Assembly: GCA_041742135.1 (NCBI GenBank)
Contig: JBGSJG010000001.1
Coordinates: forward strand, 131,151 to 195,150
DNA length: 64,000 bases
Reading direction: 5' to 3'
DNA from: Patescibacteria group bacterium
Lineage (GTDB): Bacteria > Patescibacteriota > Microgenomatia > UBA8517
Shown here: positions 45,019-63,648 of the stretch, piece after piece
How positions within the stretch are numbered: the stretch's first letter is position 1
How the letters are laid out: every line of letters begins with the position of its first letter
Program-made: the position numbers and the translations under genes
The notes under the pieces: model-generated
Seen by the model: only the letters and a program-made list of their open reading frames with translations
The model's database searches: none
Told to the model about the DNA's origin: nothing

Positions 45019-46027
45019 TCCAAACCGCGCGGTAAGGCGCGGCAGAATCGGGTAAAGCGTCTTTGGATTTTATCGCAATTGGCATTATTAGCTCCCCAGT
45101 GGTCCTAAAACTTAAAGGCTCAAAGTTTAAACCTTCCTTTTCAATTGCGATTTTGTATTCACCGTTAGGAAGTGGAGTGACGATCATAAAATGCCCAGCT
45201 TTGTTGGTTTTGAGAGCTCGAACAGGGCGACCGTCTGTGTCTGTAATTTCAAGTATTGCTCCTTCAACAATTTTCCCAACTGAATCCATCACTTGCCCAA
45301 CAACCGTGTTTGGCATAGTAGGAGGAGAAGGTGGTGCTGCCTCTGGTGAAAAGTCTGCGTTTTGAGTTTGTGGAGTCGTGCTTTGGGTAAGTGGCGCGGT
45401 AACCACTGAGGTTGTGACTGGTGTTTGTGTAGGAGGCTGGTTAAAGCCGGCAACCGGCACTTGAACAGAGGGAGCAGTTGGAACAACAAGAGGTTGTTTT
45501 TGCTCACTAGGGGCAATCGGTGCCACTGGGGTTACTGGTGGCGGCGGGGTTTCGGCTACAGCAGGAGAGCCCGCGGTATGCTTACCTCCAAGCATATGGG
45601 AAAGCTTGGAAAGAAAATCTTTCTCCTGTGCTTCTAGGTTGCGGGTGGCGTTATCTGCAGGCAAACTTTGAGGCACTTCTTCAACAGGAGTGTCTGCGCT
45701 AGCTTGTGTGTCAGCCGCAAAATACTGATCCGGGCTTCCTGTTTTTTTCCAAACAAACAAAGTTGGTGCATAGATTGACCTAAAAAATGCAACCAACCAC
45801 TGCTCAAGAGGCCGGTCTTGGATGGGCAAAAAGGCAAATGCTGCTCCAGCGACTACAGAAATCACAATCATCGGCCACTTAAAAAAGCCGGGCAAAGGGA
45901 GCGAATAAATTATAAGGCCCAAAACCGCGCCAACAGCAAGTTGGAAAAACTGCTTCAAAGTCATGTCTCCCACAAGCCGGAATTGGTAAGAGCTTATTTG
46001 TTGAGGTACAGGGTGTTGTTCAAACAT
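45011..46027 (-). CDS. VirB3-like two-TM protein fused to a Pro/Thr-rich linker and a C-terminal carboxypeptidase-regulatory-like beta-sandwich domain
   Basis: The N-terminus has 2 TM helices and …DRPLEQWLVAFFRSIYAPTLFVW…, a VirB3/TrbD-like layout directly upstream of VirB4. The linker is PPPVTPVAPIAPS…. The C-terminus (…DTDGRPVRALKTNKAGHFMIVTPLPNGEYKIAIEKEGLNFEP…) is CarbopepD_reg/transthyretin-like. Confidence 0.5.
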   Translation of the reverse strand: MFEQHPVPQQISSYQFRLVGDMTLKQFFQLAVGAVLGLIIYSLPLPGFFKWPMIVISVVAGAAFAFLPIQDRPLEQWLVAFFRSIYAPTLFVWKKTGSPDQYFAADTQASADTPVEEVPQSLPADNATRNLEAQEKDFLSKLSHMLGGKHTAGSPAVAETPPPPVTPVAPIAPSEQKQPLVVPTAPSVQVPVAGFNQPPTQTPVTTSVVTAPLTQSTTPQTQNADFSPEAAPPSPPTMPNTVVGQVMDSVGKIVEGAILEITDTDGRPVRALKTNKAGHFMIVTPLPNGEYKIAIEKEGLNFEPLSFRTTGELIMPIAIKSKDALPDSAAPYRAVWSV

Positions 46028-48637: not shown

Positions 48638-50272
48638 CTAAAGTGTTTTTGGTGTTCGATCTCCTCTACGGCCAATGGCCTTAACAACCCCTGTACTACT
48701 TTCTCTTAAGACTTGAGCACCCATACCTTCACCGGTTGACAGCAGAGTTCTGCCGACAGCATTTCTGAGCCACCCTTCACCTGATTGCATCCCTGCTCCT
48801 CTGAGTGCCAGTCCGTAGCCAATACCACTCTTTGCACCACCTGCGGCAGCCCCAATCGCCATTCCAGCGAGTCCTGCTCCAATCATACCTGAACGTTCTC
48901 TAGACATTTGCCCTGATATTATCAAGGATTTAATGTTATTAGCAAGACCTGGAGCCATCAGAAGCAGTGTTGAGCCAATAAATATTGCAAGCAGAGTAAC
49001 ATCTATACCACTAAAGCCGGGGAAGCTGATTTGCCCTGAGTTGACCAAAGGCTCGACACCATACGGATTTCCAGCGACAGTGTTTTCTAGAAGTCCACCA
49101 GATCCGCCCCCCATACCAAAAAGTAAAATATGGGCGAACATTACAGCAACTGAAATAGTTACGAATATAGATGCATGCCCAACAAGAGATCGAAGCATTT
49201 GAGTAAACATATTCCCACTTGGCGAGGCGACATATCCTAGTGCAGCGAAAGGCAAAGCAATAACATGGAGGATAATCATCACATATGTTCTTAGAAATAT
49301 CCAAAATATGCGAATGATGGCCAAAATAATCAATAGAAGCATGACCACCAACACTAGAATGCCAGCCACTATCCCGAGCACCCACCCAACCACTGGAAAC
49401 CCTCCAAAACCGCTTTTAAGAACAATCCAAACAACTGCGAGACCAAAATTCAATAATCCTCCGCCAATATCGTTGATAAGATTAAATATTGCTACGGGAT
49501 CTAGGCTGGATACTCCAGATTGCGACACGACAGCAGCAATGACTCCTTGAATAACATAGGACATATCAATTACAAACCCTGCAATTGCGTAGGAAAAAGT
49601 AATTAAAATAAAACCAATAATTACTCGAGGAATAGCTGAGGTGACACTGACACTTACTTGTGGCGAGATTCTCGCTCTAAACATGACCATGAAGGCTAAA
49701 AGAATAACTGCCAACGCCATAAGCGCGTAAGCCGCATTTCTAGAGGCTGCCCAAAGTTTTAAGATTGGTGCTAATGACCCGAAACCAAATCCTGCCTGTT
49801 GAGCATATGCTGGCTGTATTCCAATATTGTCCATAATTCCAGCAACATACGAAACCCCAGAGACAGGCCTGGTGGTTATCATTAAGTCAGAAAGCCGTGC
49901 AAATTCCAGAAAACCAAGACTCTTGCGAGGGGAAAGGGCGGTATCGGGTGAAGATGCGTCTGCAGTTGTAACACAACCCACAAAGTCGTCAAGCGCTGGG
50001 TGTTGTGTAGCACACTCAGAAATGTCGTGCTCGATGGCAAAATTTATTAGCGAATAAATGACCCACCAAACTTGTGCATGTGTGTATCTTTCACCAAAAA
50101 TTTCATTGTCAGGGATCGCTGTGTTGTTAACTTTGTCATTAAATTGCTGAAAGGTAGGAGCCCACCATTCGGCCTGAGCAGAGACAGTAGAGGGTTTAAC
50201 TGCTCCTATGAGAAAGATGGACGACAGTAGTGCGGCGACTAAGAATTTCTTAAACATCGATGATAATATCAT
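48638..50272 (-). CDS. VirB6/TrbL-like polytopic membrane protein
   Basis: A signal peptide, an about 130-aa extracytoplasmic domain, then at least 7 TM helices and a Gly-rich C-terminal tail. The architecture and its position next to VirB4/pilins fit VirB6. Confidence 0.5.
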   Translation of the reverse strand: MILSSMFKKFLVAALLSSIFLIGAVKPSTVSAQAEWWAPTFQQFNDKVNNTAIPDNEIFGERYTHAQVWWVIYSLINFAIEHDISECATQHPALDDFVGCVTTADASSPDTALSPRKSLGFLEFARLSDLMITTRPVSGVSYVAGIMDNIGIQPAYAQQAGFGFGSLAPILKLWAASRNAAYALMALAVILLAFMVMFRARISPQVSVSVTSAIPRVIIGFILITFSYAIAGFVIDMSYVIQGVIAAVVSQSGVSSLDPVAIFNLINDIGGGLLNFGLAVVWIVLKSGFGGFPVVGWVLGIVAGILVLVVMLLLIILAIIRIFWIFLRTYVMIILHVIALPFAALGYVASPSGNMFTQMLRSLVGHASIFVTISVAVMFAHILLFGMGGGSGGLLENTVAGNPYGVEPLVNSGQISFPGFSGIDVTLLAIFIGSTLLLMAPGLANNIKSLIISGQMSRERSGMIGAGLAGMAIGAAAGGAKSGIGYGLALRGAGMQSGEGWLRNAVGRTLLSTGEGMGAQVLRESSTGVVKAIGRRGDRTPKTL

Positions 50273-50300: not shown

Positions 50301-53300
50301 TTAAGGTTGGCAAGTTAGTGACTTAGGGCTAACCGGCATTGGACAAGCGGAGAAATAATCCCAAGCTGTAGATGCTATCGCATCAAAGTATGTTGGTGAA
50401 GCAAAGCTCGTGCAACTTGATCCTCCTCGGAAGAAAATCTCCATGGCAATTTCCATGTCAGACCAACCTCTTGCTCTCAGTGTTGTAAAGCAGTTTGGGT
50501 AAGTTGATTGATAGGGGGTTTGGCTGTTCCAGATTTGTAAAAATCGAGTGTATTGAGCGTTGAAATTTTCAGGCGGGTATGCGGCATTGTTGATTCCAAA
50601 GTCCTGCCACAGTAGTGGCGAAGCTGTGTAGTTGCTGCAAGCGCTTTCGTGAGCCCAGATGGCTAACGCAAACGTTGGGTGAACGCCTAACGCGACCGCT
50701 CGGGAAACCACGTCGTTGTAACATCTTCGACCGTTTGACACCCCTCGGGAGTCCCATTGTTCACAGATTCTGATTGCATTATCTTTAAATGAACCAAGGT
50801 ATTGTGCAGGTAACGCAGTGTCTGGAATATCTGTCCTACAATTTGCTTCTGAGGCAATAGGTGGCGCAGGTTCGTCTGGTAGCTCGTCTTCCGAGAAGGT
50901 TTCATTTCCACAAAGCCCCAGAGGTCGAAGTGCACACTGAATACCTTCTAGGAAATAATCCTGCACACTTCCGATGTGAGGGAAATAAAACTCAGCTGCA
51001 CTACCGGGGCGGTTATTGCCAGACAGAGCTGAAACAGAGGCGGACGATCCATTTTCGACACTGATACTATTGGCTAAATACCCAGAGGTTGTTTCAGCCG
51101 GGATGTCTTTTATTGTTGAAAGAGGAGCGTCGGCGCTAATTCTAGGAAAAATACGTCTAAACACTGACCACGATCCCGCTACGAGCCGTTGCCAGACACT
51201 GTCTGCTTCTGGTGTATTTGCTGACATCGCAAGTGGAATGGTAATAGTTTTTTGGCAAGTGGTTGGGTATGTCATAGCTGCTTCTCTACAACCAACATTG
51301 TCAAATACTCCAGCGGGGGGGAGTGGAAGGACACATCGGCCAAGTCCTGGGGTACAGCTTGGGTCAGGATTCCAGGTACCCCCTATTCCGCAAGCTGCGG
51401 GCGACTCGCAATATCCAATTAACCAACAAGCGTTGTAGAGGTTTTGGTCTACTGAAGGTGTGAAATCACAGGTAAAGTCAGCGGTATAGCTTAGTGTGGC
51501 TTGGAGTGGATTTTCTCCAGCTACACCCTCTCGTTCAAGTTCGCCGTACAAATCATCTCCAGCATTTGATCTTGTGTCTTGGAATTCGCAACCCGGCATG
51601 CGTTGTGGGAGAGTGATGTCATCAGTCTTAGGGCTGTCAAGTGCACCAGTATATTCACCTGGAATGAATGTGCGCTGTGTAACCTCTGCCAATTCTTTCG
51701 TTTCTTCCATGTGAGCAAAATATAGATTTCTGCTGGCGCTGCCTGTTGGTGAATCACTTCCTTCTTGAGTTACAGTAAAATCTGTAATAGTTACCCCTTC
51801 GCCAGAAGGTAAGCCTATCGGGCTAAAAGAGGCCATGCCTATACGATCTTCTGTGGAAGAATATGGTACATATCCCAGAGCTTCTGGGCTTGAGAATGTT
51901 GTTGCCCCCATAGTTTTTAGAAATGTGTTAGCGAGCACCCCAGTCAGCCGGTTGTAGGTATTGCTTTGGCTGTAACACGCTTCGGGCGAATCGACAGAGC
52001 CGCACTCCACAATTTGATCATGTCTTTGGGTGCCAACATTATATCCTTGCTGAAACCTAAGGCCGTCAAATTTGTTTTCGTAGTAAGGAATAAAGCCAAA
52101 ATACCAACCTGCTATGTATCTGTCACCACTTTGAACTCGTTGGGGGAGAAGTTTTTTGATCGGGCCAGACATCGAAAGGAGCAGGTCTTGGTCGCTGGGA
52201 AAGCTAAAAAAACGCTCTTCAGCTCTTTGCACTACACCATTTAAGTACCAACTGGCATACCCCGCCATACGGTCTTTGTAGGTGAGTGTCGCGTTGGGAC
52301 CAGTTGCGTTGGGAACCAGTTGAGTATTTCCCATTATAGGCAACTGGGCTCTACTCAAATCGATTTCGGCATTTAAGTTACTATCTACGATAAACCTACA
52401 AGTTTGCGTCTCACCCGCGTCCCCGGTGCAGCTACCGGGGACTGCTTGCCCTTGGTTAACCTCAAGCGTTTCAATTACCGTAAAATCATTACCACACTGA
52501 TTAACGCCGCTGGCGGTTTTGTTGCACGGGTTTGCTGGGTATGGGCGAAGAGAGTGGTATTCTGGGTCGGTTACCGTGTTGCAATCCCAATTTTCGATTT
52601 CGTATGGCGTTGTAGTAATACAAGCAGGAGTTGCCCATAGCTCTGTGGCTGGTTCGTTAGGACCAGCAATTACCCACAGGTCGCCCGATATTTTTGAATT
52701 AACGTCTGCTAGAAAGTTGGCGTACTCCACTGGGTTTGCGAAATCACAAGTGTTTCCCGCACACACCCTAAGAATTGGTTTTTTACCCAACTCGTGAGCT
52801 CTGTTTGCAAAGTCTGCAACCGTTTGCACAGCTCCTCGGGAATAAGCAATTTCAAGTATCCAGTTAACATTGCCACTGTAGCCAACCGCAGTATTCACAA
52901 ATGTTCCAGGAGTGACCTCCATCGCCGAGTTAACACCTGCCTTGCCCGGATTGGTGCTGGTAATAGTGTCAAACTCCGCCTTATCAAGTTGGTGGCGAGT
53001 AAATTCTTGATTTCCGCCGAGGGCATTAAAATAGTTAATTGATGAAACCTTCGGGTCGTTTGCAGTGATTTGGTGTTGAGAAGCGGCAAGGCTGATCGAC
53101 CCAGGATTGGCATCATAATTAAAGTCACCATATTCTGTGAAGAATGTCGGGCCTCCAGTAAAGCGAGTTTTCCAAGATACACCCCGACCATCGGGTATGT
53201 CCGCTCGGGAATACCAGTCGTACGATGTAAAACTAAAACCACCACCCGGGACGTGTGAGTAAGAGTTACCCGCAAAGCCGTCAAGCCTACTGAAATCACC

Positions 53301-53585
53301 CCTTTCGCCGGGTTGAGTAGTCATCAAATCAAATATTTGCCATTCTACAGAGCTTGTTAGATTAAATGCGGGAGAGAGAAGCTTAATGTGGCTTAAATTT
53401 CCAGCACGAGTAGTAAGGGCGTTCATGTATATTGCCAAGTCGCGCGCAATGCACTGCACGTCAGGCTCGCCTGTAGTTTGAGCTTGTATTGCTGGGGGGG
53501 CAGAAGCTCTAGGCAACAAAACAACAACTAATGCAGTCAAAACAATTGTTGAACACAAAAGAAGCTTGGTGGCTAAATGCTTCAT
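50301..53585 (-). CDS. Large (1094 aa) Cys-rich secreted protein with a glycoside-hydrolase-like (NEP motif) region and a C-terminal lytic-transglycosylase-like (…HES…) region
   Basis: Signal peptide MKHLATKLLLCSTIVLTALVVVLLP. The segment …KKPILRVCAGNTCDF…WVIAGPNEP resembles a GH5/GH26-type strand-4 NEP. The C-terminal …FALAIWAHESACSNYTASP resembles an SLT catalytic Glu-Ser region. More than 30 Cys. Confidence 0.45.
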   Translation of the reverse strand: MKHLATKLLLCSTIVLTALVVVLLPRASAPPAIQAQTTGEPDVQCIARDLAIYMNALTTRAGNLSHIKLLSPAFNLTSSVEWQIFDLMTTQPGERGDFSRLDGFAGNSYSHVPGGGFSFTSYDWYSRADIPDGRGVSWKTRFTGGPTFFTEYGDFNYDANPGSISLAASQHQITANDPKVSSINYFNALGGNQEFTRHQLDKAEFDTITSTNPGKAGVNSAMEVTPGTFVNTAVGYSGNVNWILEIAYSRGAVQTVADFANRAHELGKKPILRVCAGNTCDFANPVEYANFLADVNSKISGDLWVIAGPNEPATELWATPACITTTPYEIENWDCNTVTDPEYHSLRPYPANPCNKTASGVNQCGNDFTVIETLEVNQGQAVPGSCTGDAGETQTCRFIVDSNLNAEIDLSRAQLPIMGNTQLVPNATGPNATLTYKDRMAGYASWYLNGVVQRAEERFFSFPSDQDLLLSMSGPIKKLLPQRVQSGDRYIAGWYFGFIPYYENKFDGLRFQQGYNVGTQRHDQIVECGSVDSPEACYSQSNTYNRLTGVLANTFLKTMGATTFSSPEALGYVPYSSTEDRIGMASFSPIGLPSGEGVTITDFTVTQEGSDSPTGSASRNLYFAHMEETKELAEVTQRTFIPGEYTGALDSPKTDDITLPQRMPGCEFQDTRSNAGDDLYGELEREGVAGENPLQATLSYTADFTCDFTPSVDQNLYNACWLIGYCESPAACGIGGTWNPDPSCTPGLGRCVLPLPPAGVFDNVGCREAAMTYPTTCQKTITIPLAMSANTPEADSVWQRLVAGSWSVFRRIFPRISADAPLSTIKDIPAETTSGYLANSISVENGSSASVSALSGNNRPGSAAEFYFPHIGSVQDYFLEGIQCALRPLGLCGNETFSEDELPDEPAPPIASEANCRTDIPDTALPAQYLGSFKDNAIRICEQWDSRGVSNGRRCYNDVVSRAVALGVHPTFALAIWAHESACSNYTASPLLWQDFGINNAAYPPENFNAQYTRFLQIWNSQTPYQSTYPNCFTTLRARGWSDMEIAMEIFFRGGSSCTSFASPTYFDAIASTAWDYFSACPMPVSPKSLTCQP

Positions 53586-53622
53586 CGAATATATTATACC
53601 AAGAATGGCGACTAGTTAATTG

Positions 53623-53961
53623 TCAATTGTAGATGTCGAAGTTGAGAATTGCGGGTACACCAACAAAATTGGCAATTATTTGAACAATCAAAAACGCCAA
53701 AGCCAAAACTACTGTTCCCGCTATGGCATAAGTAATTGTGCTTTTGGCTCCCGCAACTTGCCTTGGGTCGCCACCTGAGAAAATAAAATAGAATCCTCCG
53801 ACAATAAGCATTACAAAAAGGATTATTCCACCAATTGGGAGTAGTGATGAAACAATTCTGCCAAAAACATCCGTGAGAGAGTAGAGTCCCGAAGCGCAAT
53901 TTTCACCGACAGCCCCAGGTGGGCACGGCGTGGGATCTTGCGCAAAAATAATTGATAGCAT
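53623..53961 (-). CDS. VirB2/TrbC-like pilin paralogue 1
   Basis: About 110 aa with two hydrophobic helices separated by the SGGDPRQ loop. Same design as the tandem array at 56.3-58.7 kb. Confidence 0.6.
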   Translation of the reverse strand: MLSIIFAQDPTPCPPGAVGENCASGLYSLTDVFGRIVSSLLPIGGIILFVMLIVGGFYFIFSGGDPRQVAGAKSTITYAIAGTVVLALAFLIVQIIANFVGVPAILNFDIYN

Positions 53962-54031
53962 GAGTATAGTTTAAACTAGTTGAGTTGATATATTCAATAC
54001 ATAGCAATATAATTGGCGATTTGCATCAATA

Positions 54032-54775
54032 GTGGTAAACATAAATATGGTTAAAAATAAGATTGATTTTCCGAACTACCCAGAGGTGAATAAAAAGAAC
54101 TTTAAGTCGTGGAACGATGACATGTTTCTGAAATACAACAACGAGCGCGTTTACAAGCACCCTAATTTGATAATTAGATATATTGAGAGGAAAAGAGTAG
54201 AAGCTTTAATACAATTTCTCGGTCGTATCAAAAGGTCAGACAAAATACTGGCTGCTGGTTGCGGGGAGGGATACATAGAAAAGAAGATTAATAAAGGAAA
54301 ACTCTTTTTGGTCGACATCTCGCCCCATGCAGTAGAGAGGGCCAAAAGGGGTCTGCACGATCTAAAAAATATTAAATATTTTGTCGCAGATCTTGAAAAG
54401 TTGCCCTTCCCTGATGGGTATTTTGATAAAATCGAATGCTCGGAGGTCATAGAACATGTTTTATCTCCAGAAAAGATGTTAATAGAATTCAAGCGAGTTT
54501 TGAAATCCGACGGAATTTTGGTGGTCAGCTTTCCCAACGAGCCTCTGATCAATTTTCTTAAAAGCGCTTTGTTAAAGATAGGCATACTCCATCTAGTTTT
54601 TCCAAACATTCCCGACAACATGCTGGAAGAGTGGCACTTAAGATCTATGGACTTAACAACTTTTAAGAATTTTACGAAGACTGATTGGAAAATCAAATCG
54701 TTCGCAGCCGCACCGAATAAACTGTTGCCGATAAGATACGTTGTATTGTGTGAGAAAAAAGTGACTCATTTTTGA
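54032..54775 (+). CDS. Class I SAM-dependent methyltransferase (Methyltransf_11-like)
   Basis: Motif I ILAAGCGEGY and post-I LFLVDIS, plus …YFDKIECSEVIEHV…. Confidence 0.75.
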   Translation: MVNINMVKNKIDFPNYPEVNKKNFKSWNDDMFLKYNNERVYKHPNLIIRYIERKRVEALIQFLGRIKRSDKILAAGCGEGYIEKKINKGKLFLVDISPHAVERAKRGLHDLKNIKYFVADLEKLPFPDGYFDKIECSEVIEHVLSPEKMLIEFKRVLKSDGILVVSFPNEPLINFLKSALLKIGILHLVFPNIPDNMLEEWHLRSMDLTTFKNFTKTDWKIKSFAAAPNKLLPIRYVVLCEKKVTHF

Positions 54776-56271
54776 TAGATTATTGACATCTCGTCTTCAA
54801 AGACCACTTCCCACCCTATCTTTTCAACTTCGCTTTGTAGAGATATTTGTTTTGGGCAATAAGTTAAGCCGAGAGAGTAGGCCAACCTGTCAAATTTCTC
54901 TGCGAAAACGCCCTTTGTCGTCTTTGTTGTGTTAGTGATTTTTGAGACCAAAATTGTATCGGTGTTGTATTTTGTGATGGTTTCATAAAAATCTTTGTAG
55001 CCACAGTTTATGTCTAAGTACTCGAGAAACGCATGGTCACTTTCTCCTTCTGGGGCAATCCATGAAAAGCCAGACATTCTTCCGTCAACAAAAAACTTTT
55101 TATTAGGCATTTGCCATATTAAATAGCCACCTAGGCCGTAATCAGCAAAAATGTTAGTAGAATCATTGTTTAAGGAAAGAAATGTTACGGCTCTGTAAGG
55201 GTAAAAGCCGTCTTCGTTGAGGTGCCGCCATGTGCGTGATGAGGCAAACACCGCTAAAGCCCAAACTAAAACACTTACTAGAACTAGTATTTTATAGAAA
55301 ATATTTAATCTCTCTGAGCCCTTAAGAAATTTTTTTGCCCGCTGCTCTGTGTGGTTTAGGTATTTAACAAGAAAGGGTGCCATTAGAAGTGCAGATAGTG
55401 GTGCGTATCGCCCACTGTAAACGCCTGCAAATATGCTGCCCGCTACAACTACTACTTCCCAAAGCCTTATCTTATTTTTGTTAACGAATATAAAAGTGGC
55501 TGTGAAGGCTGAAATCGCAAAAAAACCCACGTCAAAAGTAAACAATGCCGAGGCCCATTCGCTTACTGATTGTCTGAAAAGCTCACCTTGACTCATTTGT
55601 TTAACGACCTCTTCCCAGTTTCTAATGCCATATGGGTTTGCTAGGGTAGCAGCTATGCTCATCAGAAGAACTAGAAAGTCTGAAGATATAATCCGCCGTT
55701 TCTGGAAAGATTTGAACAGAATTAACAAGGCAGATAGCCCAATACCCAAAACATAGCTTCCGTGAAGATTTGTCCACACAAACATCAAGAGAGGAAGAAA
55801 CAATCGAAGTTTGTTCCAATTCGTACGATCGTAAAAAATTTTAACTAAAATAGCCAGCAGAAACCAATTAAAAACTTGCGGGCGTACTCCAACTCTTAGT
55901 GTCATACTGGAAATGACCAATAACCACGGAAGAAGAAAATACTTAGTTTTTCCGTAGACTGAAATTACAATTGAAGCAGAAGTCAGTGCAATGATGACAT
56001 GCAGGAGCGCAAGGGTATTGTACCCAAAAAGATTGTAAACGTGATAATAGAGAAAATTCGAAAGCCACTCATAGTCAATGTACGGGTATGTCTGCATTGT
56101 ATACGAAAATGGGTTTCCAGTGGGGAAGCCAACCCTCGCAATTATTTCGCCTACACGATAATGCCAACCAAAATCAGGGTCAATGAAGGTCCTTGTTCCC
56201 AGAAACAATAACGTACCCACTATAACAAAAGCTAGGCGAAAAACGTATCGTGGTTTAATGTGGCTTAACAT
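54766..56271 (-). CDS. Polytopic membrane protein (at least 11 TM helices), a possible GT-C-type glycosyltransferase/oligosaccharyltransferase
   Basis: Many TM helices in the first 350 aa, then a soluble C-terminal domain. Family not recognised. Confidence 0.4.
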   Translation of the reverse strand: MLSHIKPRYVFRLAFVIVGTLLFLGTRTFIDPDFGWHYRVGEIIARVGFPTGNPFSYTMQTYPYIDYEWLSNFLYYHVYNLFGYNTLALLHVIIALTSASIVISVYGKTKYFLLPWLLVISSMTLRVGVRPQVFNWFLLAILVKIFYDRTNWNKLRLFLPLLMFVWTNLHGSYVLGIGLSALLILFKSFQKRRIISSDFLVLLMSIAATLANPYGIRNWEEVVKQMSQGELFRQSVSEWASALFTFDVGFFAISAFTATFIFVNKNKIRLWEVVVVAGSIFAGVYSGRYAPLSALLMAPFLVKYLNHTEQRAKKFLKGSERLNIFYKILVLVSVLVWALAVFASSRTWRHLNEDGFYPYRAVTFLSLNNDSTNIFADYGLGGYLIWQMPNKKFFVDGRMSGFSWIAPEGESDHAFLEYLDINCGYKDFYETITKYNTDTILVSKITNTTKTTKGVFAEKFDRLAYSLGLTYCPKQISLQSEVEKIGWEVVFEDEMSIIYQK

Positions 56272-56357
56272 AATCAGACGATATGCTAGTTTAGTGTTTA
56301 TACAAAAAAAACACCAGGATAACCCTGGTGTTTTTTTGTTAATGGAATCAGTAGTTG

Positions 56358-56708
56358 TTACGGAGTAACAACGCTACCAATATTAAAATTCTGAATAATA
56401 TTGATTCCAAAAATTGTGCTAATGAGTTGGGCGAGAGCCCAAGCTGAAAACACTACAACCAAACCGATAAGCGCGCTTGTAACCTGATTCCTAGCTGATT
56501 CAGTCTGGCCTTTATCTCCGCCGGACATAATCCACTTTATTCCTCCGAGAATAAGCATAAAGAAGAATACCAATCCTGCTATAACCAAAATACTGTTGAT
56601 TGCCCAAGAAATCATACCACCAACGGTGATATTGGCAATGGGGCCAAAATTAGTTGGCGCGGTTAAATTTATTGTGTCTTGTGCAAATACTGTTGATAAA
56701 AATGGCAT
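56358..56708 (-). CDS. VirB2/TrbC-like pilin paralogue 2
   Basis: Two TM helices flanking SGGDKGQ. RBS AAGGAGG upstream. Confidence 0.6.
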   Translation of the reverse strand: MPFLSTVFAQDTINLTAPTNFGPIANITVGGMISWAINSILVIAGLVFFFMLILGGIKWIMSGGDKGQTESARNQVTSALIGLVVVFSAWALAQLISTIFGINIIQNFNIGSVVTP

Positions 56709-56732
56709 AATTTAAATTCACCTCCTTTTATT

Positions 56733-56771
56733 GGTTTGCTTTATAAAAAAATAATATTTGTTAAGCAAACC
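56733..56771 (-). promoter_or_regulatory. Inverted repeat (9-bp stem, about 20-nt AT loop) immediately 5' of the RBS of pilin paralogue 2
   Basis: GGTTTGCTT…AAGCAAACC. No U-tract follows on the transcribed strand. Confidence 0.4.
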
Positions 56772-56873
56772 TTAAAATTCAATATACAAAATCTTTCTAT
56801 TATAATGGCAAAAAAGTATTTGTCAAATTTTCAAGAAAGACTATCTATTTATGAACTAAGATAGGGGAGCATG

Positions 56874-57263
56874 TCAAGGGGTACCAACTGTTGCTAGCGT
56901 TGGTATGTCAATAAGAAGAAGATTTATTCCAAAGACATTCTCAATAAGGGTAAAAACTGCCCAAGCTGCAAAAAGTATTACAAGTCCAATAATTGCGTTA
57001 AGAAGCTTCTGTCTTGCTTCTTCTAGTTTGTTTTTGTCGCCTCCCGAGCCGATCCATGCTACTCCGCCAGTCAGGAACTGGAAGACAAAATAAAGCGAAC
57101 CAACAATTAGAATAATTGTTAACATGACGCTAATTAGCGCGCTTAAATACCCAACTCCTCCTGTTGCACCAGGTCCTAATGTAATGAATCGATTCAAATC
57201 ACCAATCGCTGGGTTTTTTATGTTTTCCCCTGGTATTGGTGCGGCCAGTATTGTGCTGATCAT
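56874..57263 (-). CDS. VirB2/TrbC-like pilin paralogue 3
   Basis: Two TM helices, loop GSGGDKNK. Confidence 0.6.
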   Translation of the reverse strand: MISTILAAPIPGENIKNPAIGDLNRFITLGPGATGGVGYLSALISVMLTIILIVGSLYFVFQFLTGGVAWIGSGGDKNKLEEARQKLLNAIIGLVILFAAWAVFTLIENVFGINLLLIDIPTLATVGTP

Positions 57264-57264
57264 G

Positions 57265-57624
57265 TTAAGTTAAACTGAAAATAAGTAAAGGAATATTTAA
57301 GAAAGGAATTCCAAGAATGTCGCCTACAATGTCGATTAAAAATATTGCTGATATAACAACAACAACCCCAATCAAACTCGTAGTAAGCTTTCCCTTTGCT
57401 GCAGCAAGGGCGTTTTTGTCCCCACCAGAGCTTATTATTTGAATTGCTGCCAAGAAGAATTGGATAACAAACCATATAAACGCAATGATCGTGATAACAC
57501 CCAGTGCAGTAGATATTACATCACTAAGCTTGTACACGGAACCTGCTCCTGGATTTTGGCCAAGTGTTCCAGGTAGCGTGAAACCTCCAGATGGAGCTAC
57601 GGGTATGTCTGCTAGTCTTGCCAT
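57265..57624 (-). CDS. VirB2/TrbC-like pilin paralogue 4
   Basis: Two TM helices, loop SSGGDKNA. Confidence 0.6.
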   Translation of the reverse strand: MARLADIPVAPSGGFTLPGTLGQNPGAGSVYKLSDVISTALGVITIIAFIWFVIQFFLAAIQIISSGGDKNALAAAKGKLTTSLIGVVVVISAIFLIDIVGDILGIPFLNIPLLIFSLT

Positions 57625-57972
57625 TTAAGGTGTTGGAATAGATGGGTTGATCAAGAAAGTTGCATCACCAAATATTATTTGGCCAAATATTGCAGCTAGA
57701 ACCAAAGACCCCCCAGCAATCAAAAGCCCAATTACGCTTTGGTATATTTTTGCCCAAGCTGTTTGAACCATTTTAGGGTCATCCCCAGCAGCCAAGAAAC
57801 TGTATCCCGCGAGGATGAAATTAAACAGGGCGTATATGCCCGCAATAACTATCAAAACGTTAAATGCTAACTGAAGCACTGTACCCAAAGCCCCACCTTC
57901 CACAGTCCCAAAATTTTGAGTTGGTTCTGGCTGATTAATGGTACCCCAATTAACTTGTAAAAATTGAAACAT
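57625..57972 (-). CDS. VirB2/TrbC-like pilin paralogue 5
   Basis: Two TM helices, loop AAGDDPKM. Confidence 0.6.
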   Translation of the reverse strand: MFQFLQVNWGTINQPEPTQNFGTVEGGALGTVLQLAFNVLIVIAGIYALFNFILAGYSFLAAGDDPKMVQTAWAKIYQSVIGLLIAGGSLVLAAIFGQIIFGDATFLINPSIPTP

Positions 57973-57975
57973 TTT

Positions 57976-58281
57976 TTAAAAAGGATCGGGAGCAGTCAAG
58001 AAATTCGTCCCACTCCATATCTCTATGATACGTATAACCCAGTAAGCTGTAAAGACCACGACAAATCCTACCAACGCCCAAGTGATAGCCTGCTTGCCGT
58101 TTGCAGCTCCTTTTGCGTCGCCAGAACCAGCGGAAGCGATCATTGAAACTCCACCTAATATAAACAAAAGGACCATTATAATTCCGGAAACAACAATAGC
58201 GGCTGTTACTAAATTACCTATAAAATCACCCACAGAAACAGATCGTCCGAGAGGAGAATTGAAAGTACTGCCTAAATCCAT
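57976..58281 (-). CDS. VirB2/TrbC-like pilin paralogue 6
   Basis: Two TM helices, loop ASAGSGDAKG. Confidence 0.6.
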   Translation of the reverse strand: MDLGSTFNSPLGRSVSVGDFIGNLVTAAIVVSGIIMVLLFILGGVSMIASAGSGDAKGAANGKQAITWALVGFVVVFTAYWVIRIIEIWSGTNFLTAPDPF

Positions 58282-58322
58282 ATTTTGTATATCAAAACTG
58301 ACCCCCCTGCTTAGAGGGTTCT

Positions 58323-58664
58323 CTATAAAAAGGTCCCTCTAAACCCAGGGACACCCAAGAGCAATCCAACAATTTGAACAATCCAGTATGCGCAAAAAAT
58401 AATTACAAATCCTATTAGGGCTTGGGTAAGGCGTGCTTTGGCGCTCTCGAGCGCCTTAGGGTCGCCCTTTGAAGTCATCATTGAAAGGCCAGCGGAAATG
58501 AAAAAGAAAAGAAAGGCTGCTCCAGCGACAAAAAAAATAATATTCATTATCCCCCAATTGAAAAGCCGACCGATTGTGGCGGAACCTGCGAATCTGTAAT
58601 CACTCCCAAGGGCACCTTCAAGTTCTCCATAGTTCGGTAATTGTGCGAGTACAGCATTGAACAT
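58323..58664 (-). CDS. VirB2/TrbC-like pilin paralogue 7
   Basis: Two TM helices, loop TSKGDPKA. Confidence 0.6.
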   Translation of the reverse strand: MFNAVLAQLPNYGELEGALGSDYRFAGSATIGRLFNWGIMNIIFFVAGAAFLFFFISAGLSMMTSKGDPKALESAKARLTQALIGFVIIFCAYWIVQIVGLLLGVPGFRGTFL

Positions 58665-58688: not shown

Positions 58689-60218
58689 TTAGCTAAACAA
58701 GCCTAAGATGTTTACTCCTACAAATCTTAGCAAAAAGACAGAGAGAACTATCATTAAGAGGCCTCCGATGGATGAAAAAAACAATGCTTTTGAGTTTTCC
58801 AGTTTTTTTGGATCTCCACTTGAAGTGGCAAACATGAAGCCCGCCACAGCAATCAAAAATAGGGCAATGCCTCCGCCCACTGACAATCCCCATTGGATGA
58901 AAAATCTTGTAGTGCTTTGGACTAACTGCAAGGGAATACAGCCGATGGCTGTGTCTATGCCAAGCTCAGTGCCGTCTGAGCACAAAGGATTATTCTGTGC
59001 TGGAACTCCACCTAGCTGTCTGCATAAACCAGAAGTAGGGCAACAAAAGAGCGCTCCGTCGATATCGACCGTGTCTCCTGCTCGATCGCACAGTATTCCT
59101 CCAGCGTTTTCGCAAAATACTTCAGTCGCTCCTTCTGGGGCTTGGATACACTGAGTCGACAGTGAGCAAGTGCCGCCGTTACAGTGTCCAGAAAGGCATT
59201 GGGAATCATCAGTGCATGATCCTCCGAGACCAATTTCTCCACCACCACACCAACAGTAAGTTAGGCCAGGTGTCGCTTGAACTTCCGGTGATCCTTCGTC
59301 GCAATAATATGCGCCACCATCATTCTGGCAGCATGATTGCCCGTATGAGCCGCACCCCGCTGTGTTCCCTGTGACACAACTGCCTCGTAGCCCCGCCGCA
59401 ATTGGTAGCCCAGTTGCACTTGTGGGGTGAATCCAGCACTGACGCAAGCCAAAAAGATCGCAGTCGCTTTGGATAATGTTGTCGAGGCAGGCTTCTTCTT
59501 CAAAAGTTAGGGTGCTACATTGGCCACCTCGATTGCTACAATTAAATACTACGGGCTCAGTTTCGTTTGGAGTGCAAACTCCTGGTAGATCTACATAGCT
59601 TCCAGGAAACTCAGCACACCATTCGGAGGCAGTCATTGACCCGTTGCATCTAAGATCTTCTGTACTACTGCAAGATTGGTTGTTTAAGCAACCATCACCT
59701 TCTAGTCCACCTGTGCGAGGTATGCATTTAAACTGGATGCACTGAAAGGCTGGGTCGCAAAGACTATCTATATCGCAAGCGTCACAAATCAAACCGCCTT
59801 CGACTGGGCTAACTCTTACAAAAACTGCGTCGATGGCTGTACAGAGATTTGTATAGAAAGGGCCTCCATCCCACCTGCGCAAAACGATCGTATTGCCTAT
59901 TGTTCCTTCAACAAAGAGGGAATTGCCATTGTTGTCATTTAATATGGACAACTGGACAGTTCCTCCTGTTTTGACAATATTACCTACGTCAATCCATCTG
60001 TCTGTTCGAGGAGACCAAATGTGATACCTCGTGTTGTCTGCGCTGGGATCATTGGGTGCGTTATTTATTGTGATGTTTACAGATTCGCCAGGATTTACTG
60101 TTGGCGTATTAACTACGATTGCACAACCGGATTGCGCTGAAGCGGTCCGGGGAGCAAGGGCCGCAGTATTTACAAAAAGGCCAAGTCCAAGTAGTAGCAA
60201 AACTAACTTTTTTTTCAT
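58689..60218 (-). CDS. Cys-rich secreted protein (509 aa) with a C-terminal pilin-like two-TM module
   Basis: Signal peptide MKKKLVLLLLGLGLFVNTAALA. The ectodomain has at least 45 Cys. The C-terminus is DTAIGCIP…GGIALFLIAVAGFMFATSSGDPKK…LLRFVGVNILGLFS, the same helix-loop-helix as the small pilins. Confidence 0.6.
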   Translation of the reverse strand: MKKKLVLLLLGLGLFVNTAALAPRTASAQSGCAIVVNTPTVNPGESVNITINNAPNDPSADNTRYHIWSPRTDRWIDVGNIVKTGGTVQLSILNDNNGNSLFVEGTIGNTIVLRRWDGGPFYTNLCTAIDAVFVRVSPVEGGLICDACDIDSLCDPAFQCIQFKCIPRTGGLEGDGCLNNQSCSSTEDLRCNGSMTASEWCAEFPGSYVDLPGVCTPNETEPVVFNCSNRGGQCSTLTFEEEACLDNIIQSDCDLFGLRQCWIHPTSATGLPIAAGLRGSCVTGNTAGCGSYGQSCCQNDGGAYYCDEGSPEVQATPGLTYCWCGGGEIGLGGSCTDDSQCLSGHCNGGTCSLSTQCIQAPEGATEVFCENAGGILCDRAGDTVDIDGALFCCPTSGLCRQLGGVPAQNNPLCSDGTELGIDTAIGCIPLQLVQSTTRFFIQWGLSVGGGIALFLIAVAGFMFATSSGDPKKLENSKALFFSSIGGLLMIVLSVFLLRFVGVNILGLFS

Positions 60219-60219
60219 G

Positions 60220-60990
60220 CTAGAAAAAACCTAACAAATTTACACCAATAAATCTTAATAGGTAAACAGATAGCACTACCATAATCAGGCCGCCGATCGC
60301 CGATAGCAGTAATTCTTGGCCGCCTTGCAAACGCCTCGGGTCACCTTGGGAAGTTGTTATTCTAAAGGCTGCAAAGCCAATAAGAAGAAGGGCAATTCCG
60401 CCTGCTATGCCAATTGCCCATGTAAGAAAAAACTTCGTCATTTCAGGTACGTTGTTTAGTGGTATACAGCCGATCGCCGTGTTGACCCAACCTTCGCCTT
60501 CCTCGCAACCTTGAGATACCAATTCTGAAGCGGGGATTACGGTTCCATCACCTGGGGTGCCGTCATCGGCCGGAGGTATGGTGGTTGTTGGTACGCACGA
60601 AAATATGGAAGTTGAACTGCAAGTAGTAGCAGTAAGGCTTTGACACCCACCCCCCGGCTGATATCCAGATGCGCAGTTGCTGACTGTATTACAGACCCTG
60701 CCTACTGGGTCCCAATTGCAGGTGTATTTATTTATTAACCCGGCTGGTGCAGTACAAGGGAAACTAGCAGAGTTGCATACAGCGGTACCTTGACTGGTAA
60801 GAGAAATACATAGACTAGGATTCGTGCTTTCTCCAAGTGATTCGTCACAGGATTCGCTTCCTACTCCACATGCGCCAAAAGTGTTTTCCCATGCACATGA
60901 GAAAAAATTTGAAGATGCTTGAGCTTTCACATCAGTTGTGAAGAAAAAAAACAGAAACACTGGAAATAGTAAAAACAAAACCCTTTTCAT
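60220..60990 (-). CDS. Cys-rich secreted protein (256 aa) with a C-terminal pilin-like module
   Basis: Signal peptide. Cys-rich ectodomain. The C-terminus is NTAIGCIP…TTSQGDPRR…LLRFIGVNLLGFF. Confidence 0.6.
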   Translation of the reverse strand: MKRVLFLLFPVFLFFFFTTDVKAQASSNFFSCAWENTFGACGVGSESCDESLGESTNPSLCISLTSQGTAVCNSASFPCTAPAGLINKYTCNWDPVGRVCNTVSNCASGYQPGGGCQSLTATTCSSTSIFSCVPTTTIPPADDGTPGDGTVIPASELVSQGCEEGEGWVNTAIGCIPLNNVPEMTKFFLTWAIGIAGGIALLLIGFAAFRITTSQGDPRRLQGGQELLLSAIGGLIMVVLSVYLLRFIGVNLLGFF

Positions 60991-61009
60991 ACTTCAAGTT
61001 TAGCACAAG

Positions 61010-61918
61010 CTAAAACAAGTTAAGAAGTTCTTCGGAAACGAAACGGATAATAAAAATAGACAGAAGGATCATTATAAGCCCTGCTATGGCCGATGATAAT
61101 GTGTCTCGTGCATCCTGAAGCCTTTTTGGGTCGCCCTTGGTTGTCATTATTTTTACAGCTGAAATTGAAATTAAAAATAATGCAATTCCACCTGCGACTC
61201 CCAGACTCCACCTAATCATAAACTGCGTGAACGATTCGACGCTCTGAAAAGGAACGCAGCCGATTGCTGTGTCAATCCAGCCAATACCTTCAATACATTC
61301 ACCCGCCACTTTGGCGGCAGTATGAGTTGCTGTTATGCAGCAGGTTGGTTGGCTGTCTGGGCAGTAAGCAAAAATAATTTCCTCGTCAGGAGCACATGAA
61401 CTTCTACAATTACCGCCGGCAGTGGGGCAGTCTGCTGGAGCTGCAGCCTCACACTGACTTGAGCACTGGTACTCATTGATATATGGCGGGTCCACGCCCC
61501 CTACGCATTCGACCAAGGGTGTGTCTGGGTCAAGATCGCATTCGATACAGGTTCTACTTTGGCAGAAATAACCCAAGCTTCCCGTTGGGGGTGGCATTTC
61601 GAGACAAGCTTGGATAATTGGAGCATTTCCGCATTCTGCAAAAGAGTAGTCTTCACACATTGAATCCAAAAGCAGGTCGTCGATGGGAGGAGGGTCCCCT
61701 GTAGGTGTCCACCCAGGGCGGCACAGCTCTGCTGAGGTATATATACCGCGGGTGGTGTGTGCACACCTTCCTAGCTCATCGCTCCAGGCACAAACCCAAC
61801 AACCACTTTCTTCAAAACCACTACCACATTCTTCAGGTCCAGCTTGAGCGTTTTTGGCTCCCAAGAAGGTAGACAAAAACAAGAGAAAGACAATGAATGC
61901 CAGCCTTATAAACTTCAC
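61010..61918 (-). CDS. Cys-rich secreted protein (302 aa) with a C-terminal pilin-like module
   Basis: Signal peptide. Cys-rich ectodomain. The C-terminus is DTAIGCVP…TTKGDPKR…IIRFVSEELLNLF. Confidence 0.6.
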   Translation of the reverse strand: MKFIRLAFIVFLLFLSTFLGAKNAQAGPEECGSGFEESGCWVCAWSDELGRCAHTTRGIYTSAELCRPGWTPTGDPPPIDDLLLDSMCEDYSFAECGNAPIIQACLEMPPPTGSLGYFCQSRTCIECDLDPDTPLVECVGGVDPPYINEYQCSSQCEAAAPADCPTAGGNCRSSCAPDEEIIFAYCPDSQPTCCITATHTAAKVAGECIEGIGWIDTAIGCVPFQSVESFTQFMIRWSLGVAGGIALFLISISAVKIMTTKGDPKRLQDARDTLSSAIAGLIMILLSIFIIRFVSEELLNLF

Positions 61919-61968: not shown

Positions 61969-63648
61969 ATGAAGTTGCCGCGCGTGCTTACTGCCTTTGT
62001 AATATTTGTCTTTTTGTCGCATCTTTTTAATCTGGTTTATGCGGCTAATTGTCCCTCAACTGACTACGACTGCCAGATTGCCGAAATTCAAAAAGAAATC
62101 GATGCCCTTTCTCCCGCACACGAAAACAACAAACAGGAATTATCTGATTTACAAAAACAGTTTGTGTCGCTCAAGGCGAGGATCTCGCAGATTTCAAATG
62201 AACTAATTAATGTTGCAAGCAGAATCGAAGATCGGGAAGAAGACCTTGCTTACACAAAAGAGGTTTTTGAAGAGAAAGCAGACAGTCACTATAGATTTAT
62301 CCGTACTTACGACCCAATCCTGCCTTTTATTTCATCGGAGGATGCTTCAAGTGCTCTAATTGAGGTCGGTCTTCGCTCCCGTGCCGCAGATGGTGACCGC
62401 CAGACAATGGAGGGCTACGCCACAGAGCTTATTAAGCTTAAAGAAGATCAAGACAATCTGACCAAAAACAAGCAAAGCTTGGCTAACGCACAAGCAAGTG
62501 TGGATAGCCGCGCCAAATTTTTGGAAGGGGAAATCGGTAAAGTAGAGGATTATATCCAGAGCTTATCGAGCCGACAAGAAGAACTATTAGCACTTAAGGC
62601 AGGAGGCTTTTCAACTTCCATTGGAGACACGCCTGCAACTCTTGAGCCTTGTAGCGGTCCTCCGGGAAGTGCCAATTTTTGCGATCCTGGTTTCAGGCCG
62701 GCTTTTGCCGCCTTTTCTTTTGGAGCTCCACACCGAACTGGCATGAGCCAATACGGTGCACTAGGTCGCTCGAAATCTGGGCAATCTGCGGAGACAATTT
62801 TGTCTGCATATTATCAAGGAGCAGAGCTGACCAAAGGGTTTGGTGTTCCTGACACTATTGGCGTTACGGGGATTGGCCGTGTTTCGTTTGAAGAAAATTA
62901 CTTGATGGGTATTTACGAAGTGCCGGAAAAGTGGGGAGACGAAGGCGGGTTTGAGGCCCTAAAAGCTCAGGCTGTGGCTGCTCGTAGCTATGCCTTGTCA
63001 GTAACCAATAACGGCGCGGGAACTATTTGCCCCACTGAATCTTGCCAGGTTTACAAGCCACAGCTCAAAACTGGTAAGTGGGCAGAAGCTGTACGTGCTA
63101 CTAGAGGATGGGTGATTACCCGTGGAGGCCAGCCTGTGTCGACATATTACTCAGCCTCTACTGGTGGATTTACAATTTCACAGTGGGGTTGGAGCGGAAT
63201 TAAAGACACATCTGGAGATTGGCCGGGGACTGCATACGAGAAAATTGGTGGAAGCCCTTGGTTTTATAAGGGCTGGTACAAAAGTCGGGCAGGTAACAGT
63301 TGTGGTAGAGGTAATCCCTGGCTTTCTTCAGAAGACATGGCAGATATCTTAAATGCTTGGAAGGTTTTATATCAAGGTGGTGGAGATGTGGGGCGTGTAT
63401 CGCCCGTGGGTGAGTGTTGGGGAGGAAACCCCTATCCTAAGGGTGAGCTTGCAAACATTGGGGGGTACACTAGCGTGAGCTCTGTCTCGGTTGTGTATTC
63501 AAATTCGGGTTCTACTCAGTCGGTGAGCTTTTCCACCAACAAAGGGTCGGTAGGAATTTCAGGAGAGGAACTTAAGCGCGCTTTCAATCTCCGTGCACCG
63601 GGATATGTAGGCATCAAGTCTTCGCTTTTTAATATAGAAAAGATATAA
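61969..63648 (+). CDS. SpoIID/LytB-domain protein with an N-terminal signal/TM and a coiled-coil region
   Basis: Coiled-coil at 40-220. The SpoIID/LytB signature is …GAPHRTGMSQYGALGRSKSGQSAETILSAYYQGAEL… and …AQAVAARSYAL…. Confidence 0.7.
   Translation: MKLPRVLTAFVIFVFLSHLFNLVYAANCPSTDYDCQIAEIQKEIDALSPAHENNKQELSDLQKQFVSLKARISQISNELINVASRIEDREEDLAYTKEVFEEKADSHYRFIRTYDPILPFISSEDASSALIEVGLRSRAADGDRQTMEGYATELIKLKEDQDNLTKNKQSLANAQASVDSRAKFLEGEIGKVEDYIQSLSSRQEELLALKAGGFSTSIGDTPATLEPCSGPPGSANFCDPGFRPAFAAFSFGAPHRTGMSQYGALGRSKSGQSAETILSAYYQGAELTKGFGVPDTIGVTGIGRVSFEENYLMGIYEVPEKWGDEGGFEALKAQAVAARSYALSVTNNGAGTICPTESCQVYKPQLKTGKWAEAVRATRGWVITRGGQPVSTYYSASTGGFTISQWGWSGIKDTSGDWPGTAYEKIGGSPWFYKGWYKSRAGNSCGRGNPWLSSEDMADILNAWKVLYQGGGDVGRVSPVGECWGGNPYPKGELANIGGYTSVSSVSVVYSNSGSTQSVSFSTNKGSVGISGEELKRAFNLRAPGYVGIKSSLFNIEKI

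Follow-up and report, generated by a model that had tools for sequence, protein, structure and literature searches.

Why would a single type IV secretion system (T4SS) locus hold a long row of divergent pilin genes? The question is raised by a 64,000-nt stretch of contig JBGSJG010000001.1 (assembly GCA_041742135.1, positions 131,151 to 195,150 of the forward strand) from a Patescibacteria group bacterium of the Microgenomatia. This whole stretch is hereafter called the window, and all positions below refer to it. The window is chromosomal DNA from a member of the CPR (candidate phyla radiation) carrying housekeeping genes (dnaA, dnaN, yidC, tRNA synthetases, GroEL and others), and the names attached to homologues of the pilin called type 6 below include Candidatus Woesebacteria and Microgenomates, the nearest relative found being 70–72% identical. 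We read the region as the pilin module of a chromosomal, origin-proximal, Gram-positive-type T4SS of a Woesebacteria-like (Microgenomatia) bacterium of the Patescibacteria/CPR, a reading that we consider moderately probable. Its pilin genes fall into eight types that keep one order from genome to genome, which argues for a set of distinct subunits rather than a store of variants.

An earlier, sequence-only reading of the window had listed six open reading frames (ORFs) of 101–129 aa and a seventh at 53.6 kb. All seven are present at these positions on the minus strand (Table 1), and as a list of small genes the inventory stands. It was not complete, however: three larger upstream genes (58689–61918), contiguous with the array and named here the L-type genes wA, wB and wC, share the pilin hairpin and had been overlooked, so that the locus holds ten pilin-domain genes. 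From type 1 to type 6 the spacers between the small ORFs measure 41, 3, 0, 1 and 165 bp, and 24 bp separate the stop codon of wC from type 1. The seventh gene, listed apart at 53.6 kb, is no separate copy: type 7 directly follows type 6 in most relatives (median gap 56 bp) and is split from the array in the window by a 2.4-kb insertion. The G+C content is about 0.39 over the small-pilin array and the inserted islet (54001–58000) and about 0.46 in the flanking L-type and T4SS genes.

In a Pfam scan, the family T4SS_pilin (PF18895) matched all seven small genes, with E-values from 1.6e-11 to 1.3e-4, far beyond chance. Five of them lie above its gathering score of 26.6 bits (29.6–44.5 bits) and types 3 and 4 lie below it, at E ≤ 1.3e-4; among the L genes wA alone exceeds the score, wB and wC remaining below. 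The same family matched 40 of 42 small pilins from six genomes at E ≤ 0.01. The alignment confirmed the common design proposed beforehand, namely a variable N-terminal tail (N-tail), a first transmembrane segment (TM1), a short loop, a second segment (TM2) and a short tail. The N-tail measures about 23–42 aa and the loop is (S/A/K)GGD(P/K)-like, with an invariant G-D. By a hydropathy scan, every small pilin has two TM segments, a net basic loop and two tails poor in K and R. The AlphaFold2 (AF2) model of type 6 is a helical hairpin (helices 29–61 and 66–100, core pLDDT about 97). Fold searches with this model were non-specific, the hairpin fold being generic, and a profile search of the PDB sequences with 90 type 6 orthologues returned none even at E ≤ 10. 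Type IV prepilins and pseudopilins were considered and rejected, as the proteins have no class III leader or G↓F(M)xxxE motif, two TM helices and no globular domain.

In order to compare the array across relatives, which were gathered through their similarity to type 6, we used five syntenic loci (L001–L005) and then 80 loci from species-representative genomes; one hidden Markov model (HMM) per type was built from six genomes, including that of the window, and all ORFs were classified. For each window pilin, the best match in every one of the five syntenic loci was the gene at the corresponding rank, with about twice the score of the second-best match. Orthologues are 40–74% identical, compared with 24–46% between paralogues in the window. 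Eight orthologous types were recognized in this way, L (in three copies in the window) followed by 1 to 7. The order L-1-2-3-4-5-6-7 is collinear in 83 of 84 non-duplicate loci, 55 of which are complete, and this gene order is common to Woesebacteria, Shapirobacteria and Microgenomates; a Shapirobacteria-like group has no detectable L or type 1. Type 5 is absent from one Woesebacteria group (L020, L023, L038, L043), in which type 6 occurs in two or three copies, and L074 has three type 6 copies plus type 5. Many public records of metagenome-assembled genomes (MAGs) with this operon (L014, L021, L023, L028 and about 35 more) bear the title 'uncultured Gammaproteobacteria bacterium'; since they agree with Woesebacteria/Microgenomates in gene content and synteny, the titles look like placeholders or mistakes.

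The dN/dS ratio was 0.06–0.26 for every type in the only unsaturated pairs, L072/L080 and L073/L081; the window with its nearest relative (70% amino acid identity) and most other pairs are saturated (dS > 1.2 or not computable), and L024/L025 are too similar. Between the paralogues no DNA repeat exceeding 44 nt was found, only patches of 18–44 nt with 63–89% identity over the conserved core, and recombination or gene conversion between paralogues was rejected on this evidence. All types combine a conserved hairpin core with variable N- and C-tails. The small genes are separated by a median of 2 bp, a spacing that implies co-translation. That the pilin genes are genuine is shown by more than 80 genomes in which one-to-one orthologues are kept under purifying selection. 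Taken together, the fixed order, the purifying selection and the lack of repeats argue against antigenic-variation cassettes and for a set of eight non-redundant subunits. The antigenic or host-specificity diversification suggested by the sequence-only reading is not supported by these data, whereas the minor pilin subunits that it named as an alternative are consistent with them.

One type of the set carries expression signals of its own. The 165-bp gap upstream of type 6 contains a sigma-70 promoter identical to the consensus, and in 74% of 87 loci the 150 nt upstream of type 6 hold a promoter match of at least 10/12, compared with 4–22% for the other types; for matches of at least 11/12 the values are 61% and 0–5%. 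This frequency is reached although the usual gap before type 6 is only 23 bp. Within the window array, the perfect Shine-Dalgarno sequence AAGGAGGTG is found at type 6 only, and an intrinsic terminator directly follows the gene (-19.5 kcal/mol, z = -4.9, with 0 of 200 shuffles as stable). Moreover, type 6 is the slowest-evolving and most conserved type, and the only one of types 1–7 seen duplicated or triplicated (in the five loci with multiple copies named above). From its own promoter, perfect Shine-Dalgarno sequence, terminator, conservation and amplification we infer that type 6 is likely the major pilin. A second promoter-like arrangement was observed in the 37-bp spacer between type 7 and the gene for a 1094-aa protein (53586–53622, minus strand), where a TTGACA overlaps the stop codon and an extended -10-like element TGGTATAAT follows; the spacing between the two, about 22 nt, is too long for a standard sigma-70 promoter.

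The N-termini of the pilins are short, being fixed by stop codons just upstream (e.g., MPFLSTVFAQD). Most pilins of all seven types start with a hydrophobic leader of 4–12 residues ending in A-Q (for example at 56679–56708, 58641–58664 and 53935–53961), and in all seven types the hydrophobic-A-Q motif occurs in the first residues 4–6 times as often as expected from shuffled sequences. Only 3–15% of the orthologues per type have room for a Sec-type signal peptide, and the few with a full signal peptide carry the same A-Q motif at its end. In six genuine VirB2/TrbC sequences A-x-A↓Q is invariant; the long signal peptide cleaved at this site, by which TrbC/VirB2 proteins are recognized, is missing from most of the small pilins, which retain the A-Q. 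A YidC-type route could account for the membrane insertion of proteins that lack a full signal peptide. The L proteins, on the other hand, keep a full signal peptide. In each of wA, wB and wC an acidic Cys-rich ectodomain and a TAIGC(I/V)P motif are combined with the pilin hairpin, which lies at the C-terminus; in wA the ectodomain has 22 Cys and the motif takes the form TAIGC(V)P. Of the three copies, wB comes closest to the single L gene of most relatives and best matches that of L003–L005, and in some genomes a minimal L of 103–130 aa is found. Such a minimal L amounts to an eighth pilin type, and the Cys-rich ectodomain is a variable insert.

The genes had been called VirB2/TrbC-like. That they form a T4SS pilin family in a T4SS locus was borne out, but direct homology to TrbC/VirB2 (PF04956) turned out to be only marginal. 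Type 7 is the only window pilin to match PF04956 (18 bits, E 0.0034), below the gathering score of 27.9 bits, and among the 42 small pilins three matched at E ≤ 0.01 (best E 0.0025). An HMM-HMM comparison (hhalign) of the 42 pilins from six genomes with six genuine plasmid VirB2/TrbC proteins gave 61 columns in register over TM1-loop-TM2, with P = 0.0022 and a probability of 12.8%, a weak result where the proteins are hydrophobic; with only the type 6 profile, 17 columns were aligned at a probability of 1.6%. Compared with the classical VirB2/TrbC/TraA pilins (PF04956; Agrobacterium T-pilus, RP4, F), the array pilins are likewise small, with two hydrophobic helices, a short basic loop, termini predicted outside, genes beside VirB3 and VirB4 and A-Q at the end of the leader. 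Unlike them, they have a longer loop with an invariant G-D, most lack a complete signal peptide, each locus holds eight types instead of one, and the host is a monoderm.

The nearest named family outside Pfam is NCBIfam NF045849, the 'Mbov_0395 family pilin-like conjugal transfer protein' of Mycoplasma integrative and conjugative elements (ICEs). It matched 34 of the 42 small pilins at E ≤ 0.01 (best 3.6e-9), spanning nearly the whole 80-residue profile. Type 6 scored 28.8 bits (E 7.4e-7) and type 1 21.5 bits, both under the 40-bit equivalog cutoff, and on these scores the window genes would be relatives of NF045849 and not members. The VirB4 of Patescibacteria has its relatives in the MPF-FATA class of monoderms (PMC12102498). 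In combination with the NF045849 link, this suggests that the small pilin-like subunit may have come with that monoderm machinery and was not borrowed from diderm systems. The Mycoplasma family resembles the window system in its monoderm host and its MPF-FATA-type T4SS, and differs in that it belongs to a mobile element whereas the window system is chromosomal. We know of no arrays of NF045849 proteins.

In 12 of 81 loci the gap between types 6 and 7 is wider than 300 bp, which makes this junction, at which the window array is interrupted, a hotspot of insertion. In the window, the islet that separates type 7 from the array includes a gene for an S-adenosylmethionine (SAM)-dependent methyltransferase and one for a 501-aa membrane protein (54766–56271) with no Pfam or NCBIfam match. 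A Foldseek search of the PDB with the model of the 501-aa protein returned STT3 (E 4e-8, TMq 0.64), PglB (4e-5) and ArnT (7e-4), with DPY19 and AftA as further structural matches. D31-P-D33 in its first external loop is invariant or nearly so in 73 homologues. The WWDYG acceptor-sequon motif (W-W-D-[YW]-G) is absent from the protein, the nearest conserved motif being G-G-Y-L-I-W at residues 381–386. Given the GT-C fold and the lack of WWDYG, the modelled structure identifies it as a GT-C enzyme with a fold like that of oligosaccharyltransferases (OSTs), not as a demonstrated OST.

This junction is also the site of homologues of the GT-C gene in L002 and L013; in L012 a homologue comes after type 6, and homologues are found, too, on short contigs that carry the closest type 6 orthologues. 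The type 6 N-tail contains two sequons, N14-L-T and N26-I-T, and across type 6 N-tails 52 N-x-S/T sequons were observed versus 33 expected, or 89 versus 49 in a larger set (1.6–1.8 times the shuffled value); one locus with a GT-C gene has no type 6 sequon. The GT-C islet may modify the pilin or the envelope, and glycosylation of the type 6 pilin is put forward as a hypothesis only. Elsewhere, an Acyl_transf_3 acyltransferase is inserted at the 6–7 junction in L001 and L002, and wide gaps are also seen in L013, L024, L030 and L036. The inserted genes named here all encode enzymes of a glycan- or envelope-modifying kind.

The pilin genes are part of a larger cluster (Table 1). The VirB4 and PrgI genes lie 8–14 kb from the pilins in one co-oriented cluster, with the same synteny in L001–L005, and dnaN and dnaA directly follow the T4SS cluster. 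Downstream of the pilins and on the same strand, a 244-aa protein has orthologues in relatives that are labelled Pfam TraC-like. The 1094-aa secreted protein next to type 7 (50301–53585) gave no Pfam or NCBIfam match and has a syntenic counterpart in L001–L005; the 544-aa protein, likewise without a family match in our scans and represented by a syntenic gene of about 550 aa in the same five loci, is a candidate VirB6/PrgH-like channel subunit. The M23 peptidase (41374–42372) is a candidate cell-wall hydrolase of the system. On the other side, the SpoIID-domain gene occupies the same position in L001 and L003–L005; this lytic transglycosylase family and the M23 peptidase could replace the missing VirB1 cell-wall hydrolase. 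The cluster also includes, on the plus strand (46136–48568), a gene for a highly charged, cytoplasmic 810-aa protein with no Cys and no known family, with counterparts in L001–L005. Neither a coupling protein (VirD4) nor a relaxase was found in scans of nearly all large ORFs of the window, and its family scans revealed no phage or bacteriocin genes.

Table 1. Features of the pilin locus and its surroundings, from the highest window coordinate to the lowest
Feature	Position	Strand	Remarks
SpoIID-domain protein	61969–63648	+	PF08486 E 3.8e-14; divergent neighbour of the pilin operon
L-type pilin-domain protein wA	61010–61918	-	302 aa, 22 Cys; PF18895 27.8 bits, residues 237–294
L-type pilin-domain protein wB	60220–60990	-	256 aa, 14 Cys; PF18895 22.9 bits
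L-type pilin-domain protein wC	58689–60218	-	509 aa, 36 Cys; PF18895 16.4 bits, residues 442–499
Pilin type 1	58323–58664	-	113 aa; PF18895 33.7 bits; same-rank orthologue in 5/5 syntenic loci; type HMM
Pilin type 2	57976–58281	-	101 aa; PF18895 35.6 bits; orthologues, type HMM
Pilin type 3	57625–57972	-	115 aa; PF18895 22.4 bits (below gathering score); orthologues at 48–74% identity
Pilin type 4	57265–57624	-	119 aa; PF18895 24.4 bits; start abuts type 3 stop
Pilin type 5	56874–57263	-	129 aa; PF18895 29.6 bits; orthologues, type HMM
Sigma-70 consensus promoter	56799–56826	-	TTGACA-16-TATAAT; 12/12 match, in the 165-bp gap upstream of type 6
Pilin type 6	56358–56708	-	116 aa; PF18895 41 bits; candidate major pilin
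Intrinsic terminator	56302–56339	-	hairpin and T-run, directly after type 6
GT-C-fold glycosyltransferase (inserted)	54766–56271	-	501 aa; AF2 pLDDT 95.6
SAM-dependent methyltransferase (inserted)	54032–54775	+	PF08241 E 1.6e-20
Pilin type 7	53623–53961	-	112 aa; PF18895 44.5 bits, PF04956 18 bits (sub-threshold); last gene of the ancestral array
Conserved downstream neighbour of type 7	50301–53585	-	1094-aa secreted protein, 31 Cys; signal peptide/TM at residues 6–24
544-aa protein	48638–50272	-	8 TM-like segments; candidate VirB6/PrgH-like channel subunit
PrgI-family (VirB3-like) protein	45011–46027	-	PF12666 E 3.3e-8
VirB4-type T4SS ATPase	42374–44287	-	PF19044 TraG P-loop E 8e-32, plus DUF87, AAA_10
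Membrane-anchored M23 peptidase	41374–42372	-	PF01551 E 7e-5 (below gathering score); three TM-like segments

As a mechanism, we propose that membrane insertion would leave the N- and C-tails of the small pilins outside and their basic loop inside, and that most of them would insert without a full Sec signal peptide, presumably by a YidC-type route. A VirB4-driven machine would then extract them and polymerise them into a pilus or a wall-spanning pseudopilus. In such a structure type 6 would be the abundant major subunit, and types 1–5 and 7 would be low-abundance, non-redundant minor subunits with roles in priming, at the base or at the tip. The L proteins would be pilin-anchored Cys-rich ectodomains that face the host cell, as adhesins or as proteins of the tip, and the variable tails would form the surface-exposed parts. 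The most specific version of this proposal is that the T4SS pilus or pseudopilus of a monoderm CPR bacterium is heteromeric and made of eight anciently fixed types (6 as the major subunit, 1–5 and 7 as obligatory minor ones, L as the Cys-rich adhesin), that in this lineage type 6 is glycosylated on conserved N-x-S/T by the downstream OST-like GT-C enzyme, and that the subunits have a common ancestry with the Mycoplasma ICE proteins, of monoderm MPF-FATA origin. As a whole this version is tentative and on the doubtful side.

The proposed division of labour recalls type II secretion (GspG with GspHIJK) and type IV pili (PilA with FimU-PilVWXE), where one strongly and separately expressed subunit likewise accompanies an ordered, conserved operon of divergent low-abundance subunits with one structural core. 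Fold and machinery are unrelated, the class III leader (G↓F...E) and a prepilin peptidase signature are both missing, and the analogy is a functional one. Some pilA loci also adjoin a pilin glycosyltransferase. To our knowledge, a logic of major and minor pilins is not known for any VirB2-type system.

Several points weigh against reading the region as a pilin module of this kind. Sequence homology to classical VirB2/TrbC is marginal, and for systems of this sort a filament has never been observed. The search for loci through type 6 may inflate its apparent conservation; in addition, the type HMMs were trained on six genomes that include the window. Finally, the roles suggested here for the minor pilins and the L proteins would follow by analogy.

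The alternative that survives best is that the proteins stay in the membrane, as two-TM subunits (VirB3-like or other) from which the T4SS would build a hetero-oligomeric ring or channel in the inner membrane. The marginal homology to VirB2 and the generic hairpin fold speak in its favour, as does the closest named family, NF045849, which is a small Mycoplasma ICE protein; the comparable small ICE proteins CDS13 and CDS15 have been described as VirB3-like (PMC12857230), and Gram-positive T4SSs are normally without a pilus (PMC12102498). A separate PrgI/VirB3-like gene is already present in the cluster, however, and PF18895 is classed as a pilin by the Pfam curators. The L members bear large secreted Cys-rich ectodomains on the same hairpin, and a separately promoted, presumably highly expressed member suits a polymer better than a ring of fixed stoichiometry. 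Weighing both sides, we regard a membrane-resident ring or channel as unlikely.

The paralogues could, secondly, be interchangeable alternative pilins, that is, a repertoire for antigenic variation or host-range switching, as has been proposed for Bartonella trwL and Anaplasma virB2 and suggested for Patescibacteria (PMC12102498). The low identity between paralogues would suit a repertoire, and so would the predicted-outside N- and C-tails, which are the least conserved parts in every type, and the copy number of type 6 and L, which differs between lineages. Against it stand the fixed order with one-to-one orthology, the low dN/dS ratios and the lack of repeats for recombination. The tight packing suggests co-expression rather than one expressed gene with silent copies, and the pilin genes of Southlakia have been reported to be essential (PMC10633639). 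Like the window locus, a single T4SS locus of Bartonella (Trw) or Anaplasma includes several VirB2-type pilin genes in tandem; theirs are described as lineage-specific amplifications tied to antigenic or host-cell variation (cited in PMC12102498), whereas the window set is ancient, with a fixed order, purifying selection and orthologues closer to each other than paralogues. An interchangeable repertoire is in our view quite improbable. An unrelated two-TM family (holin, bacteriocin immunity or similar) merely adjoining T4SS genes, to which small size, two TM segments and multiple copies are common, is hardly credible, as the Pfam scans gave no holin or immunity match, which had been named as a finding that would speak against a pilin family, competing Pfam matches are scattered over one or two of the 42 proteins each and fall below their own cutoffs, the linkage to VirB4/PrgI is kept in all loci inspected, and the window has no phage or bacteriocin genes.

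We return to the pilin module and to what was already known of such arrays. Quinonero-Coronel et al. (2025) searched 3,035 Patescibacteria genomes with PF18895 and PF04956 and described 441 'VirB2 arrays' in 383 assemblies. These arrays comprise 2–11 pilin genes, which are on average 25% identical within an array, and they are most abundant in Microgenomatia and Saccharimonadia (PMC12102498). The Patescibacteria T4SS was often found beside dnaA and usually without a relaxase, and the arrays were likened to those of Bartonella and Anaplasma, with adaptation to different hosts as the suggestion (PMC12102498). By transposon sequencing (Tn-seq), Wang et al. (2023) found the pilin series of the T4SS cluster of Southlakia epibionticum ML1, a six-pilin array, to be essential (PMC10633639), and the essentiality of these genes is also given in PMC12857230. 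The sequence-only reading had considered several pilins in place of one VirB2 unusual; this is true with respect to classical T4SSs and untrue for Patescibacteria, in which arrays have been published (PMC12102498, PMC10633639, PMC12857230).

The window array differs in nothing of kind from the published Patescibacteria arrays, with which it shares PF18895, tandem divergent pilins, a Gram-positive-type T4SS near dnaA and the lack of a relaxase or coupling protein nearby. A fixed order of types across genomes, a type 6 promoter, truncated leaders, L-type fusions as array members, an adjacent GT-C gene, orthology and minor pilins are not reported in PMC12102498 and PMC10633639. The kind of array is already known, and what is added here concerns the constant order of the eight types, the promoter of the likely major pilin, the shortened leaders and the GT-C gene next to the array.

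For a Microgenomatia lineage the array itself is expected and already in the literature. Its interest is that the only Patescibacterium amenable to genetics cannot live as an epibiont without the T4SS and its pilin genes. If there are indeed eight specialised subunits with one major pilin, the unexplained paralogues would become a concrete, testable model of assembly, in which type 6 would be the protein to tag or to raise antibodies against and each deletion would be expected to be lethal. The surface-exposed parts would then be the tails and the L ectodomains, and a candidate post-translational modification would have been named.

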